Of a stretch of 64,000 nucleotides of DNA, positions 55,809 through 63,642 are shown in pieces. The stretch is from the NCBI RefSeq assembly GCF_988242995.1, contig NZ_OZ547043.1. One strand, written 5' to 3'. Both the position numbers and the translations under genes were made by a program. The notes beneath the pieces are model-generated. The model was not told where the DNA came from. It made no database searches and saw nothing but the letters and a program-made list of their open reading frames with translations. Position 1 is the stretch's first letter; each line of letters opens with the position of its first letter.

Positions 55809-57878
55809 TTACTGTAACAGCGAAATATCCGCAACGCGCAGGAACAGTTCGCGCAGTTTCTCCAGCATGGTCAAACGGTTGATACGCAATTCTTTGTCAT
55901 CAACCATGACCATCACTTTATCGAAGAAGGCATCAACCGGTTCACGCAGCTCAGCCAGTTCGACCAGCGCATCCTGGTAACGACCTTCAGCAAAGTACGG
56001 CTCCAGTTTATCGCGCAGCACAACCACCTGCATCGCCAGTTTAATTTCTTCCGGCTCTTTCAGAGTAGAAGCATTCACGCGATCGCTCAGCACTTCGTCA
56101 GACTTCGCCAGAATGTTAGATACACGTTTGTTCGCCGCCGCCAGTGCAGCAGCTGCATCCAGGGTACGGAAGTGCGATACCGCCTTCATACGGGCATCGA
56201 AATCTGCCGGACGAGTCGGACGACGCGCCAGTACCGCCTGGATGGTATCAACGGTATAACCTTCGTCCTGATACCAGGCGCGGAAGCGACCGAGCATAAA
56301 GTCGATAACATCATCAACCACGTTGGCATTAGTCAGCTTATCGCCATACAGACGCACTGCTTCTTCGGTCAGCGTTTGCAGATCAAGGTTGAGGTTCTTC
56401 TCAACGATAATGCGCAGCACACCAAGTGCGGCACGACGCAGCGCAAACGGGTCTTTATCGCCTTTCGGATGCTGACCGATACCGAAGATACCTGCCAGGG
56501 TGTCCATCTTGTCAGCAATCGCCAGCGCACAAGCCACTGGGTTAGACGGCAGGTCATCACCGGCAAAACGCGGCTGATACTGCTCGTTCAGCGCCACTGC
56601 CACATCTTCCGCTTCGCCATCGTGACGCGCGTAGTGCATCCCCATAACGCCCTGGGTGTCGGTGAACTCGAAGACCATGTTGGTCATCAGGTCGCACTTG
56701 GACAGCAGGCCCGCACGGGTTGCGTGGTTAACGTCAGCGCCAATCTGTTCAGCAATCCAGCCAGCCAGCGCCTGGATGCGGTCAGTTTTGTCGCGCAGTG
56801 TACCCAGCTGTTGCTGAAACAACACGGTTTGCAGGCGCGGCAGGTTATCTTCCAGACGTTTTTTACGGTCAGTGTTGAAGAAGAACTCGGCATCCGCCAA
56901 ACGTGGACGAACGACTTTCTCGTTACCAGAGATAATTTGCTGCGGATCTTTCGATTCGATGTTGGCAACGAAGATAAAGTTCGGCAGCAGTTTGCCGTCG
57001 TTCGCGTACACCGGGAAGTACTTCTGGTCACCTTTCATGGTGTAAACCAGCGCTTCAGACGGCACAGCGAGGAATTTCTCTTCAAATTTCGCGGTCAGCA
57101 CAACCGGCCACTCCACCAGCGAAGCCACTTCTTCCAACAGGCTTTCGCTTAAGTCAGCGTTACCGCCAATCTTACGCGCCGCTTCTTCGGCATCGGCTTT
57201 AATCTTCGCCTTACGTTCTTCGTAATCGGCGATGACTTTCCCGCGCTCACGCAGAATTTCCGGATACTGATCGGCATTGTCGATAGTGAATTCCGGCTCG
57301 CCCATAAAGCGGTGGCCGCGAATCACGCGATCGGACTGAATGCCCAGAATGGTAGCCGGAATAACTTTGTCGCCCAGCAGCAGGGTCACGGTGTGCACCG
57401 GACGCACGAAGTGCACGTCGCTTGCACCCCAACGCATCAGTTTCGGGATCGGCAGTTTCGCCAGCGAAGTCGCAACCATATTCGGCAACAGTGCTTCAGT
57501 GCTTTCGCCCTTCACGTGGGCGCGATACAGCAGCCATTCACCTTTATCGGTAGTCAGACGCTCAGCCTGGTCTACGGTAATACCGCAACCACGCGCCCAG
57601 CCTTCTGCCGCTTTGCTCGGTTTGCCTTCAGCGTCGAACGCCTGAGCAATCGCCGGGCCGCGTTTTTCGATTTCACGATCCGGTTGCGCTTCCGCCAGGT
57701 TAGCTACTTTCAGCGCCAGACGACGCGGAGCAGCAAACCATTGAACGGTGCCGTGTGCGAGACCAGCGTTATCCAGCTCCGCAGTAAAATTCGCAGCAAA
57801 GGACTCAGCCAGGCTGCGCAGTGCTTTTGGTGGCAGCTCTTCAGTGCCAATTTCCACCAGGAAAGTTTTCTCAGACAT
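55809..57878 (-). CDS. glyS: Glycine--tRNA ligase beta subunit, 689 aa
   Basis: Track [43 protein letters not shown]...; expected length. Confidence 0.97.
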
Positions 57879-57887
57879 AGCCGCCTC

Positions 57888-58799
57888 TTACTTATCTTTG
57901 TTGCACATCGGGAAGCCGAGGGCTTCACGGGAAGCGTAGTATGCTTCAGCCACTGCTTTGGTCAGGGTGCGAATGCGCAGAATGTAGCGCTGACGCTCGG
58001 TGACGGAGATGGCTTTACGCGCATCCAGCAGGTTGAAGCTGTGGGCGGCTTTTAGAATACGCTCGTAGGCTGGCAGCGGCAGTGGATTTTCCAGCGCCAG
58101 CAGCTGCTGCGCTTCTTTCTCGTACTGCTCAAAGCAGGTGAACAGGAAGTCCACATCCGCGTATTCGAAGTTGTAAGTGGACTGCTCCACTTCGTTCTGA
58201 TGGAACACGTCGCCGTAGGTGGTTTTACCCAGCGGGCCGTCGCTCCAGACCAGGTCGTAAACGCTGTCTACGCCCTGAATGTACATTGCCAGACGTTCCA
58301 GACCGTAGGTGATCTCGCCGGTAACCGGTTTACACTCCAGACCACCAACCTGCTGGAAGTAAGTGAACTGCGTCACTTCCATGCCGTTCAGCCACACTTC
58401 CCAGCCCAGCCCCCAGGCACCCAGCGTCGGGTTTTCCCAGTTATCTTCCACGAAACGGATGTCGTGGATGGTCGGGTCCATGCCCAGCTCTTTCAGAGAA
58501 CCAAGGTACAGCTCCTGAATATTGTCCGGCGATGGCTTAATGACCACCTGGAACTGATAGTAGTGCTGTAAACGGTTGGGGTTTTCGCCGTAGCGACCAT
58601 CGGTCGGGCGACGAGAAGGCTGAACATAAGCAGCCGCCATCGGTTCTGGCCCCAGCGCGCGCAGACAGGTCATTGGGTGAGAGGTTCCCGCGCCGACTTC
58701 CATGTCCAATGGTTGAACAATGGTGCAGCCCTGGCGAGCCCAGTAATCCTGTAAGGTCAGGATCAAGCCCTGGAAGGTCCTGGTATCAAACTTTTGCAT
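57888..58799 (-). CDS. glyQ: Glycine--tRNA ligase alpha subunit, 303 aa
   Basis: Track [45 protein letters not shown]... Confidence 0.97.
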
Positions 58800-58893
58800 A
58801 TTATTTCGTGCTGGATACGTGTGGATTTAAAGGAAGGGATCAGTATACCCGCTGGATGGAAGATATACAGTACGAAACGGGAAAAAGCAGGGC

Positions 58894-59202
58894 TTAACGC
58901 ATGGAAAGATGCAAAAAATGGCCATCTGCGTCAAAAGAACAGACAAACTGCTCTTTACGGAAGGTATAACCGCGCATTTCGTAGCTCCCCTGGAACTGTT
59001 CAAATGCGGTGACGTCGATTTTTTGCGCACCTGTATTATAGCGTTTTGCCGCCTGATCTTTGCATAGCCCTTCCATATTCAACGAACGCAGAGGATCAAC
59101 CTTTACCCGTTGTGCTTTCTGCACGGGTGGCGGTGTAGAACAACCCACTAGCGCCATAAGCACCATAAGCGCCATTGCCGGAAAGAAAGAGTTCATCATC
59201 AT
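58894..59202 (-). CDS. ysaB: Small lipoprotein YsaB, 102 aa
   Basis: Track ORF MMMNSFFPAMALMVLMALVGCSTPPPVQKAQRVKVDPL... (lipobox LVGC). Confidence 0.8.
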   Translation of the reverse strand: MMMNSFFPAMALMVLMALVGCSTPPPVQKAQRVKVDPLRSLNMEGLCKDQAAKRYNTGAQKIDVTAFEQFQGSYEMRGYTFRKEQFVCSFDADGHFLHLSMR

Positions 59203-59376
59203 TAAATTACCGTCTGGTTTGCAGGTGAGTCTTATTATTTATATCGGTATAGTGGCTGATATCTTACGAATTTCCTTAAGCCTCTATAAGCTGTAGTGAT
59301 AAAACTCAGATTATTCCAGTGCGCCAACCGAATGATTTATCGGTCAGACTTTTTTTAACCAGATACAGAGACACAG

Positions 59377-60372
59377 ATGCAGCCCAAAATTTACTGGATT
59401 GATAACCTGCGAGGGATAGCGTGTTTAATGGTGGTGATGATTCACACCACTACCTGGTATGTGACCAATGCTCATAGTGTTAGCCCCGTCACATGGGATA
59501 TCGCCAATGTTCTGAATTCTGCCTCTCGTGTCAGCGTGCCGCTATTTTTCATGATTTCCGGCTATCTCTTTTTTGGCGAACGCAGCGCCCAGCCGCGCCA
59601 TTTCTTGCGTATCGGCTTATGTCTGCTTTTTTATAGCGCAATCGCACTGCTCTACATTGCGCTGTTTACCTCCATCAATATGGAGTTAGCGCTGAAAAAC
59701 CTGCTGCAAAAGCCAGTGTTTTACCACTTGTGGTTTTTCTTCGCGATTGCGGTGATTTATCTGGTTTCACCGCTGATTCAGGTGAAGAACGTCGGCGGAA
59801 AAATGTTGCTGGTGCTAATGGTGGTGATTGGCATTATCGCTAACCCAAACACAGTGCCGCAGAAAATTGACGGTTTTGAATGGCTGCCAATTAACTTATA
59901 TATCAATGGCGATACTTTTTACTACATCCTGTATGGCATGTTGGGCCGCGCTATAGGGATGATGGACACACAGCATAAAGCACTGTCGTGGGTGTGCGCC
60001 GCACTGTTTGCGACGGGGGTTTATATTATCTCTCGCGGGACATTATATGAATTGCAGTGGCGCGGAAATTTTGCCGATACCTGGTATCTTTACTGTGGGC
60101 CGATGGTTTTTATCTGCGCAATCACGCTATTGACTCTGGTTAAAAACACGCTGGATACGCGTACCGTTCGCGGACTTGGCTTAATCTCCCGCCATTCGTT
60201 GGGTATATACGGATTCCACGCCTTGATTATCCATGCACTGCGCACCCGGGGGATTGAGCTTAAAAACTGGCCAATACTCGATATTATTTGGATCTTTTGC
60301 GCGACGTTGGCAGCGAGTTTGTTACTTTCTATGCTGGTACAACGAATCGACAGAAACAGACTAGTGAGTTAA
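59377..60372 (+). CDS. wecH: Membrane O-acetyltransferase for enterobacterial common antigen, 331 aa
   Basis: Track [38 protein letters not shown]...; acyltransferase-3 family. Confidence 0.92.
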
Positions 60373-60380
60373 ATAAATAT

Positions 60381-60405
60381 CCTCCGGCATAGCCGGAGGT
60401 TTTTC
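60381..60405 (+). terminator. wecH intrinsic terminator
   Basis: cctccggcatagccggagg followed by ttttt. Confidence 0.7.
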
Positions 60406-61110
60406 AAATGCGCCTATAAGGCTCTCTTACCAGCCGCGCCCTAACAGGCGCACACGATCTGACATTTGCATCCAACTTCGTTACTTACGGCCCGTAAACG
60501 GGCTGCCCGGATAGGGAATCGATAACTGCTCTCCCATTTTATCCTCTTCAAGCTGGTGCTTTATGTAATCCTGTATCTTCGCCGTGTTCTTACCCACTGT
60601 ATCGACGTAGTACCCTCTGCACCAGAACTCCCTGTTCCTGTATTTGAATTTCAAATCACCAAACTGCTCGTAAAGCATCAGACTGCTTTTCCCTTTCAGA
60701 TATCCCATAAAGCCGGATACGCTCATTTTGGGCGGGATCTCCACAAGCATATGGATATAATCTGCACAGCATTCAGCTTCCAGAATCCGTACGCTTTTCC
60801 ACTCACACAGCTTTCTCAAAATACTGCCTATTGCTCTACGCTTCTCTCTGTAGAACACCTGTCTTCGGTATTTTGGCGCAAAAACTATGTGATATTTACA
60901 GTTCCATCGGGTGTGCGCTAAGCTCTTTTCGTTCCCCATTGGGACCCCCTTTTGATTTCTTGTTTGACACTTGCAGTTGCCAGACCGCAAAGTGTTTTAA
61001 CAAATCAAAAGGGGTTTTAATAACTGGCTCAAAGCTGAAAGCTTTCCGGAACCCCCAGCCTAGCTGGGGGTTTTCTGTGCACAATAAAGGCCCGGTCACA
61101 TTGGACTGAC
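60405..61110 (-). mobile_element. IS200-like insertion sequence (IS200/IS605 family); boundaries approximate within about 30 bp
   Basis: Single Y1 (HuH) transposase gene with about 75 bp after the stop and about 170 bp before the start. The upstream end carries the characteristic perfect hairpin acccccagcctagctgggggtt. Total about 0.7 kb, as expected for IS200; no terminal inverted repeats, consistent with the family. Confidence 0.8.
60481..60939 (-). CDS. tnpA: IS200-family transposase TnpA (Y1 HuH transposase), 152 aa
   Basis: Track ORF 60481..60990; conserved start MGNEKSLAHTRWNCKYHIVFAPKYRRQVFY; HuH motif (HMLVEI) and catalytic Tyr region (RGYYVDTVG) present. Confidence 0.92.
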   Translation of the reverse strand: MGNEKSLAHTRWNCKYHIVFAPKYRRQVFYREKRRAIGSILRKLCEWKSVRILEAECCADYIHMLVEIPPKMSVSGFMGYLKGKSSLMLYEQFGDLKFKYRNREFWCRGYYVDTVGKNTAKIQDYIKHQLEEDKMGEQLSIPYPGSPFTGRK

Positions 61111-61118
61111 CGGGCTTA
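61087..61118 (-). terminator. Probable yiaA terminator hairpin
   Basis: Stem cccggtca / tgaccggg followed on the minus strand by ctttattgt, just 3' of the yiaA stop. It could instead be part of the IS200 end. Confidence 0.45.
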
Positions 61119-61124
61119 TGTGAA

Positions 61125-61562
61125 TTATTCGCTGTATTCTTCCTGGGTAACCTGTGTTTCTTTTAGTGGGTTTATTCCGGCATCACGAATATTCTTCTGC
61201 ACCGCTACTGCACCAAACAAGCTTAAGAAGAAAGCTAGTCCATAAAAACCTTTCTCGCTGAGTAATAATGTCGCATTCCACAGACCTACCATCAGTAATG
61301 CAACAGAGATAATAAAGACAGTCAGGCAGGTCATATAATAAATGGAAGTGGTCGGTATGCCTTCATACTTGTCCCGAACGGTCTTTTGATAAGACGCAGC
61401 AGAAAACAGTCCTAATACCAGTACGGCAAAATAATATCCTTTTTCATTTAACTGCATCTCTGCATTCCATAGCCCTAACAGATAGGTAACGATACCACCA
61501 ACGAGAGCTATCCATGACACAATACTGAATGCCGGAGAATAGGTTGATATTTTGTTGTCCAT
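61125..61562 (-). CDS. yiaA: Inner-membrane protein YiaA, ~145 aa
   Basis: Track ORF 61125..61565 [33 protein letters not shown]...; second Met taken as start; paralogue of the adjacent yiaB. Confidence 0.88.
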
Positions 61563-61607
61563 CACAGTATTCCTTTCATTCCTGAATGTGTAAGAGCTTT
61601 ATGTTGC

Positions 61608-61949
61608 TCATGCCGGGCGAAACAAACGCATTTGACCAAACAAGCAGACAAAAAAGGCGATAGGGTAGATCACCATTTCATAAGCATTGATAGGTGCGTT
61701 TAAAACACCTATAAACAAGAGACCGATAGTGATTAACGCAACTAACTGGCAGATGTGGGTAAAAAAATCATCCAGTTGCCCGAGTTTTTCTGCGCGAAGA
61801 TATGCATAGTTGCCAAAAGTTGCCGTCATTAACACGCCAAGAAAATAGCCTTTTCCACTTAACAATGGGCATGAGATCCATAGCCCAAGCAGATAAACCA
61901 GCGCCCCGGCAACAAATAATATTTTTGCCACAGTCTTTGAGGTTTTCAT
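61608..61949 (-). CDS. yiaB: Inner-membrane protein YiaB, 113 aa
   Basis: Track ORF 61608..61991; start taken at MKTSKTVAKILFVAGALVYLLGLW (ATG at 61947-61949); shares the YLLGLW and ...LFG motifs with YiaA. Confidence 0.85.
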   Translation of the reverse strand: MKTSKTVAKILFVAGALVYLLGLWISCPLLSGKGYFLGVLMTATFGNYAYLRAEKLGQLDDFFTHICQLVALITIGLLFIGVLNAPINAYEMVIYPIAFFVCLFGQMRLFRPA

Positions 61950-62116
61950 AACGATCTCCATATCTACCAGCGATACATTACGAGTAACCAACGAAAGACA
62001 AAACTGAAAAATGCCATTAACAAATGATTTCAGAATAAATTCATACTAAATATTAATTAATTACTGATATATATAGATGTAAATTATCCCCCACCCGGTC
62101 AGGCAGGGGATAACGT

Positions 62117-63571
62117 TTACGCCATTAATGGCAGAAGTTGCTGATAGAGGCGACGGAACGTTTCACGTCGTGGCTGATAAGCGGCATAACGCTGCGCATC
62201 TGGTAGATGCGACTGTTCTAACGGCAGTTGCGGCAACAACTCAATGAGCGATTTCTCTGGATTCGCCGCAATCTGCGCCAGCCTTGCTGCGCCCAGTGCT
62301 GGCCCCACATCCCCCCCCGTACGGTAATCGAGCCGCTGACCGCTGATATCCGCCAGCATCTGACGCCAGTACTCACTACGCGCCCCGCCACCAATCAACG
62401 TAACACTTTGCGGTTTAATGCCGCAGGCATGCACGACATCCATGCCATCTGCCAGCGCATAACCCACGCCTTCCAGCACTGCTCGCGCCAGTTCATTGGG
62501 GCCATGTTGATGAGTCAAACCAAAGAAAACCCCCTTCGCCTGGGGATTATTGTGTGGTGTACGCTCGCCGGAAAGATAAGGCAGAAACCAAACTGGCTCG
62601 GCACTTTCATCAGCCTGTTGAGCAGCCGCGATTAAAGCTGGGACATTGTTCAGGCCCGTTAATTTCGCAGCCCAATCCAGACACGACGCTGCACTCAGCA
62701 TTACAGACATTAAATGCCAACGCTGCGGTAGCGCATGGCAAAAGCTGTGTACGGCGCTTTCTGGCTTGCTTAAGAACCCTTCGCTGACAGCAAAATAGAC
62801 CCCCGACGTCCCCAGCGATAACATTGCCTGATTAGCATCAACCATTCCTACACCAACCGCACCAGCTGCATTATCACCACCGCCTGCGACAACTGGCACC
62901 GCCGCCATACCCCACGCTTTCGCAACTTCAGGTAGCAAAGCACCAGTAATTTCGCTGCCTTCGTATAATGCGGGCATCTGGTCACGAGATAAGTGGCAAG
63001 CCTGCAGCATGACGTCACTCCAGTCACGCTTTGCGACATCCAGCCACATGGTGCCAGCTGCGTCAGACATATCGCTGGCAAACTCCCCCGTCATACGCAG
63101 ACGCAAGTAATCTTTCGGTAACAATACTTTGTCGATTTGACGGAATATCTCCGGCTCATGCCGCTGAACCCATAGCAATTTAGGCGCAGTAAATCCGGGC
63201 ATCATCAGGTTACCGGTAATCACCCGCGATTGCGGAACTCGCGCTTCCAGCAAAGCGCACTCTTGCGCACAGCGCCCGTCGTTCCACAAAATGGCAGGGC
63301 GTAATAACCGTTGCTGGGCATCCAGTAAGGTTGCACCGTGCATCTGGCCGGCAATACCCAATGCTTTAACGTCCTGCAGAGAATGCTGATCGCCCAGGGC
63401 TTTCATTGCGCGATCAGTTGCCTGCCACCACTGTTCCGGGTCTTGTTCCGACCAGAGTGGATGCGGGCGCGAAACGGTCAGCTTTTCCGTTTGCGAAGCA
63501 ACCACCTCGCCCTGCTCGTTGAGCAAAATAACTTTTACGCCCGAGGTGCCAAGATCTATCCCGATATACAT
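62117..63571 (-). CDS. xylB: Xylulokinase, 484 aa
   Basis: Track ORF MYIGIDLGTSGVKVILLNEQGEVVASQTEKLTVSRPHPLWSEQDP...; FGGY carbohydrate kinase. Confidence 0.96.
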   Translation of the reverse strand: MYIGIDLGTSGVKVILLNEQGEVVASQTEKLTVSRPHPLWSEQDPEQWWQATDRAMKALGDQHSLQDVKALGIAGQMHGATLLDAQQRLLRPAILWNDGRCAQECALLEARVPQSRVITGNLMMPGFTAPKLLWVQRHEPEIFRQIDKVLLPKDYLRLRMTGEFASDMSDAAGTMWLDVAKRDWSDVMLQACHLSRDQMPALYEGSEITGALLPEVAKAWGMAAVPVVAGGGDNAAGAVGVGMVDANQAMLSLGTSGVYFAVSEGFLSKPESAVHSFCHALPQRWHLMSVMLSAASCLDWAAKLTGLNNVPALIAAAQQADESAEPVWFLPYLSGERTPHNNPQAKGVFFGLTHQHGPNELARAVLEGVGYALADGMDVVHACGIKPQSVTLIGGGARSEYWRQMLADISGQRLDYRTGGDVGPALGAARLAQIAANPEKSLIELLPQLPLEQSHLPDAQRYAAYQPRRETFRRLYQQLLPLMA

Positions 63572-63642
63572 ATCGATCGTTCCTTAAAAAAATGCCCGGT
63601 ATCGCTACCGATAACCGGGCCAACGGACTGCACAGTTAGCCT

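Follow-up and report, generated by a model that had tools for sequence, protein, structure and literature searches.

An IS200C copy in the wecH-yiaA spacer: ends, target site and a transposase with an altered HUH motif

A close relative of the element analyzed here is IS200 of Salmonella enterica, a 707-bp insertion sequence with a single tnpA gene (Lam and Roth; Beuzon and Casadesus; Ellis and Haniford, PMC4513863). [quoted passage not shown] The left-end hairpin acts as a bidirectional terminator that blocks incoming transcription (PMC4513863). The corresponding element of Escherichia coli is IS200C, whose transposase is represented by WP_000526135.1. IS608 of H. pylori and ISDra2 of D. radiodurans belong to the same Y1 HUH fold family, and their transposases matched the one described below (PDB 2a6m, E 3e-18, and 2xm3, E 1e-15).

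The 64-kb stretch of DNA that was analyzed, hereafter the window, contains a copy of this kind. It has the 712-bp block, the hairpins and the 152-aa open reading frame in common with IS200C of E. coli, and differs from it by the substitution H61Y in the HUH motif of the transposase. Its architecture is the same as that of Salmonella IS200, and the two transposases cluster together at 90% identity; the copy in the window is about 5 bp longer, and its transposase differs at about 10 aa from the Salmonella-type cluster representative P0003. As in IS608 and ISDra2, the mechanistic models of the family, subterminal hairpins take the place of inverted repeats, no true target duplication is made, a short specific target directly adjoins the left end, and the top strand is found on the lagging-strand template. 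IS200C differs from these two elements in that it lacks tnpB and, in place of TTAC or TTGAT, has as its target a T-rich run immediately following a terminator-like hairpin. For IS200C, the pairing between guide and target is an inference. Taken as a whole, the locus is almost certainly a complete IS200C copy, oriented on the minus strand, that was recently inserted into the 41-bp spacer between wecH and yiaA.

Identity, ends and hairpins of the element

The complete IS200C was located at 60372..61083 on the minus strand as a 712-bp block (TGTGCACAG...GGATATTTATT) that is conserved among copies. Read along the top strand of IS200C, which runs from window position 61083 down to 60372, the conserved block opens with TGTGCACAGAAAA and closes with ...CCGGAGGATATTTATT. 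The ends were determined by comparing independent copies lying in different genomic flanks, together with empty sites, and the junctions were resolved by hand and by BLAST against the closer empty sites. The first-pass annotation had delimited the element as 60405-61110, a range that is 33 nt short at the right end and takes in 27 nt of host sequence at the left end. Its assignment of the element to the IS200 family, and its placement between wecH (59377-60372, plus strand; Acyl_transf_3) and yiaA (61125-61565, minus strand; NCBIfam YiaA), were both borne out. The 705-nt core displayed 99.7% identity to hundreds of E. coli copies that PGAP names "IS200/IS605-like element IS200C", such as that of CFT073 (NC_004431.1), and the name is used here by way of these copies. 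In ISfinder, isoforms share 95% or more nucleotide identity with the reference, a value that the 99.7% over 705 nt exceeds. No observation spoke against this identification, and neither refuting result named in the first-pass annotation was encountered. No further IS200 copies or fragments were found in the 64-kb window, which thus holds a single copy.

The tnpA gene (60481..60939, minus strand) encodes a 152-aa Y1 (HUH) transposase, as had been proposed from the open reading frame. The protein matched Pfam Y1_Tnp (PF01797; E 5e-37, profile positions 2-121 of 121) and NCBIfam transpos_IS200 (E 1e-41; 142 bits vs a cutoff of 55), and it aligned with the solved Y1 transposases of Sulfolobus, IS608 and ISDra2. 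At 712 bp the element is too short for tnpB, and other credible open reading frames are absent from it. Two open reading frames of 121 and 92 aa on the plus strand within the element were rejected as antisense artefacts. IS200C is therefore a 0.7-kb, single-gene member of the IS200/IS605 family, with a Y1 HUH transposase of about 150 aa (PF01797) and no tnpB.

Terminal inverted repeats are absent, and the element carries two subterminal hairpins (61050-61072 and 60381-60399) whose sequences are unrelated to each other. The perfect hairpin of the left end, AACCCCCAGCTAGGCTGGGGGTT (61050..61072, minus strand), had already been quoted in the first-pass annotation; it has a 10-bp stem and was found once in the window, against zero matches expected by chance. 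It occupies nt 12-34 of the 712-bp block, which is the position published for Salmonella IS200 (PMC4513863), and it is identical to the bidirectional terminator described there.

The left-end hairpin together with most of the tnpA 5'UTR (60949..61072, minus strand) matched Rfam STnc490 (RF01405), the art200 region, over the full model (1-124) with 144.6 bits vs a gathering score of 56 (E 9e-31). A stem-loop of the 5'UTR (60946..61014, minus strand) lies just upstream of the ATG at 60939, and within it the Shine-Dalgarno region (AAAGGGGG) is paired. Its RNA fold has an MFE of -40.4 kcal/mol (z = -3.96), and it corresponds to the inverted repeat at nt 69-138 of IS200, the published translational block (PMC4513863). 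Judged by its sequence, the copy has all of the regulatory parts of IS200, namely the left-end terminator hairpin, the stem-loop hiding the ribosome binding site and an art200/STnc490-like region. By homology, transcription of the antisense sRNA art200 would be expected from the plus strand at about 60931-61020. The STnc490 model matched the tnpA-sense strand, whereas published work places STnc490/art200 antisense to the 5'UTR of tnpA (PMC4513863). The strand and extent of the model seem not to fit the 90-nt art200. A match to Rfam DLG2-AS1_2 in yiaA was rejected as a chance match (18 bits vs a gathering score of 70).

The subterminal hairpin of the right end, CCTCCGGCTATGCCGGAGG followed by ATATTTATT at the 3' end of the element (60381..60399, minus strand), has an 8-bp stem. 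It is terminator-like on both strands; on the plus strand it lies 8 nt past the wecH stop codon and is followed by TTTTT. The element had previously been described as lying between a wecH terminator and a yiaA terminator, a description that had to be revised. Because it is identical in every full-length IS200C copy compared, the supposed wecH terminator at 60381-60399 is the right-end hairpin of the element itself, and a single native hairpin is left at 61090-61115. The latter (61090..61115, minus strand) is host DNA adjoining the insertion and represents the terminator of yiaA, shared with wecH. It has a 9-bp stem (z = -5.1), is terminator-like on the minus strand, and is also present in the empty sites of MG1655, gw25, ETEC1738 and the draft assembly GCA_034199335.1 (L029), where it is the sole hairpin. 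The practical use of these comparisons is a clean annotation of the exact ends, with the hairpin after wecH reassigned to the element.

Junctions, target site and association with terminators

The draft assembly L029 provided the closest empty site. It is 100% identical to window positions 56877-60377 and 61083-63583 (3501 and 2501 bp) and does not contain the intervening 711 bp. L029 encodes exactly the same WecH protein, and 22 further places with this WecH protein were grouped with L029 because most of their neighbouring genes are shared. The existence of this isogenic empty site indicates that, on this genetic background, the insertion is recent.

The top-strand sequence is ...GTGACCGGGCC TTTATT TAACTCAC... 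at the empty site and ...GGGCC TTTATT GTGCAC...GGATA TTTATT TAACTCAC at the filled site. The net insertion relative to L029 is 711 bp, and the conserved block is 712 bp. The target T-tract TTTATT (61083..61088, minus strand) is present once in the empty site; its second occurrence in the filled site, at 60372-60377, is the conserved 3' end of IS200C. A true 6-bp target duplication was considered and rejected. The right end ...TATTTATT is invariant in all copies, and the left flanks of other IS200C copies vary (TTTTTT, CATTTT, TTTAAT, TTTCGT, TTTACT and others), so the repeated TTTATT is not a target duplication. It is made up of the constant right end and a similar target, and the exact ends are ambiguous within the 6-nt TTTATT that target and right end have in common. 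The element thus shows no target-site duplication, and its left end lies 3' of a short specific target. This junction fits the rule for the IS200/IS605 family, in which the element is joined by its left end to the 3' side of a short specific target and itself carries the right cleavage site (PMC5027513). An assembly artefact was rejected, since the identical junction was found in eight complete genomes and in an independent metagenome scaffold.

The GC skew was negative on the plus strand in 16/16 bins, and is therefore positive on the minus strand, which is the top strand of the element. In MG1655 the locus is situated at 3.73 Mb in the same orientation as in the window; oriC of this strain, which we take to lie at about 3.93 Mb, would place it in the left replichore. 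From the replichore and the GC skew, the top (active) strand of the element is the lagging-strand template, as is the rule for IS200/IS605 elements (PMC5027513). By extension from the family, transposition would proceed through a single-stranded circle formed from the top strand ('peel and paste'), and the left end would attach to the 3' side of a short T-rich target in the lagging-strand template. On the top strand, A-runs were observed 5' of both hairpins, AAAA at 61010-61013 and GAAAAA at 60400-60404, and both the target and the right-end cleavage site are T-rich. In analogy to the AAAG/TTAC pair of IS608, the A-runs may well be the guides for the T-rich target and cleavage sites.

The insertion point lies directly 3' of the T-tract of the yiaA terminator on the yiaA-sense strand. 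The tnpA gene is co-oriented with yiaA, and wecH and yiaA are convergent. A preference of IS200 elements for terminators or hairpins had been put forward to explain this position, and the comparison of sites agreed with it. In all of 15 independent sites, the 45 nt located 5' of the left end contained a GC-rich hairpin and a T-tract ending at the junction. The terminator belonged either to a gene co-oriented with tnpA or to a convergent pair (nine annotated sites together with L010 and L011). In the 12 sites for which both flanks were available, folding was stronger in the 5' flank than in the 3' flank (mean MFE -17.4 vs -5.9 kcal/mol; Wilcoxon p = 0.001).

Older papers on IS200 and IS1541 are said to state that terminators are targeted, and they are not relied upon here. 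A 2025-26 preprint reports that terminator-like sequences are enriched just upstream of IS200/IS605 elements across the family. A search of the literature for explicit targeting of Rho-independent terminators by IS200 or IS200C returned only this general enrichment, in one preprint.

The association could partly stem from the survival of harmless insertions and not from target choice. In the full form of this explanation, IS200C inserts at any T-rich pentanucleotide and only the harmless copies behind terminators persist. T-runs are common, insertions within genes or promoters would be purged, and the sole classical IS200 insertion, hisD984, is located inside a gene (PMC4513863). However, in 15/15 sites the left end lies where the T-tract stops, only a few nucleotides beyond the stem on its 3' side, and the element is without exception oriented like the terminated gene. 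Many other T-runs in intergenic DNA would be equally harmless targets, in either orientation. Different IS alleles also occupy one and the same nucleotide position in different genomes. Survival as the whole explanation is possible, though we would not expect it; the fixed position and orientation favour target choice.

The H61Y transposase and its movement

The TnpA encoded in the window was identical to WP_000526135.1 at 151 of the 152 residues, H61Y being the sole difference. Codon 61 of tnpA (60757..60759, minus strand), the first histidine of the HUH motif, is TAT (Tyr) for CAT (His). At this position, nt 325 of the element, the window has T; each of the eight copies L002-L009, which come from distinct sites in complete RefSeq genomes, has C. 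Y125 and Q129 are kept, and the motif reads Y61-I-H63 rather than H-I-H, so that the catalytic set of the family (HUH, Tyr, Gln +4) is not intact. Histidine occupied the column of residue 61 in all three displayed PDB homologs (2ec2, 2f4f and 2a6m). The HUH histidines are ligands of the essential catalytic Mg2+ (PMC6006769). Loss of one of them leaves membership in the family by descent unaffected and bears on autonomy. The C of codon 61 sits in a GATC site.

The exact H61Y protein was found on about 25 contigs, compared to at least 1000 for the canonical protein, and this recurrence shows that the variant is real. An identical 712-bp element, H61Y included, is located between rplT and pheM in another assembly (L010:2857-3568), and copies with H61Y and 100% identity occur near ymgL (L012:2857-3568, L015:2857-3568 and L016:1-690). 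Among the 5426 complete RefSeq E. coli genomes no 100% identical element was detected, the best match having 99.7% identity. With H61Y copies at other loci and an empty isogenic wecH-yiaA site, the mutation most likely preceded the insertion. As the insertion between wecH and yiaA is recent, the H61Y element seemingly moved when it was already mutant. Such movement seems to imply either that wild-type copies mobilised the element in trans or that some activity is left. Wild-type TnpA of other copies probably placed the H61Y copy here, and the copy itself would probably be non-autonomous.

A different reading holds that H61Y inactivated the transposase only after the insertion, and that the copy is now a decaying relic. 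The replaced residue is the first HUH histidine, a class of residues that ligate the essential Mg2+ (PMC6006769), and the copy of strain Yu5 at the same site is already a pseudogene with an internal stop. In the window, however, both ends, both hairpins, the full open reading frame, Y125 and Q129 are intact, and the identical 712-bp H61Y sequence is present at two other loci (L010 and L012/L015), with the isogenic wecH-yiaA site empty. We consider decay after insertion unlikely, and keep to movement of an element that already carried H61Y.

The C-to-T change causing H61Y was also observed on at least five other IS200C backbones at other sites (L011, L013, L014, L017, L018 and L019), which points to recurrent mutation or to gene conversion between copies.

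A speculative proposal, about which we are rather doubtful, is that IS200C chooses its targets by structure: a terminator hairpin and T-tract on the lagging-strand template would mimic the right end of the element (hairpin plus ATATTTATT) and be recognised as such. Separately, an H61Y (YUH) sub-lineage would be spreading despite the loss of a canonical metal-binding histidine. If such a sub-lineage does spread, either resident wild-type copies mobilise it efficiently in trans or the HUH enzyme tolerates tyrosine in place of the first histidine. The apparent mobility of H61Y copies and the strict placement behind terminators are of interest to transposon specialists only.

Distribution of the insertion and effect on neighbouring genes

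IS200C is a curated and very common element of E. coli, and a further copy is in itself of little importance. Copies covering at least 80% of the query were detected in 2063 of the 5426 complete E. coli genomes, with up to 35 matching places per genome. The wecH-yiaA site, in contrast, was filled in only eight of the 5426 and was empty, with the joined-flank query contiguous, in 5391. The spacer of MG1655 is 41 bp long and contains no IS, in agreement with the expectation of the first-pass annotation that the element would be absent from this site in K-12. Over the 2.7 kb compared, gw25 equals MG1655; the query of IS plus flank matched gw25 at one place only, the empty site, which indicates that its genome is without IS200C. 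The suggestion that the insertion is specific to a strain or lineage is also upheld by the eight filled genomes and the isogenic empty site. Automatic pipelines already annotate IS200C at this position in the eight genomes. The element is thus a known IS at a rare, already annotated position.

The insertion is not confined to complete genomes. A gut-metagenome scaffold (L030; ERZ28659460 scaffold_24) is 100% identical to window positions 56877-60424 and has the same right-end junction. Its contig stops after 53 nt of the element, which is typical of repeats in short-read assemblies. The junction indicates that a human-associated sample also contains this insertion. The insertion is usable as a lineage marker, because isogenic strains that carry it and that lack it both exist.

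That the element is ancestral at this site and was lost from K-12 and most strains by precise excision is very improbable: excision of IS200/IS605 elements does reseal the donor so that an empty site looks never occupied (PMC5027513), and the eight occupied genomes carry several IS alleles, but in 5391/5426 genomes, from every identity band, the site is empty. It is also empty in the assembly whose flanks are 100% identical over 6 kb, the one with which the 22 further same-WecH places were grouped. IS200 transposition and excision are notoriously rare (PMC4513863), which makes thousands of independent losses implausible.

Within near-identical flanks, the eight occupied sites (L002 and L020-L026) comprised three or more IS200C alleles, and their junctions came in two variants (T or TT). 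These mixed alleles suggest repeated use of the site, or gene conversion or concerted evolution among copies. The Yu5 copy among the wecH-yiaA insertions measures 709 bp.

Both wecH and yiaA are intact after the insertion. The wecH stop codon TAA (60370-60372) is kept, its last A being supplied by the conserved 3'-terminal base of the element, and the WecH sequence equals the protein of the isogenic empty-site strains. The yiaA open reading frame and its terminator are undisturbed, and this flank is 100% identical to L029. Transcription of wecH would run into the right-end hairpin and TTTTT, not into the shared terminator, and yiaA would keep its own. As far as the sequence allows a prediction, the insertion is expected to be neutral in phenotype. 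On the plus strand, the right-end hairpin with its T-run (60381-60405) has the form of a substitute terminator for wecH, which the insertion cut off from the shared one.
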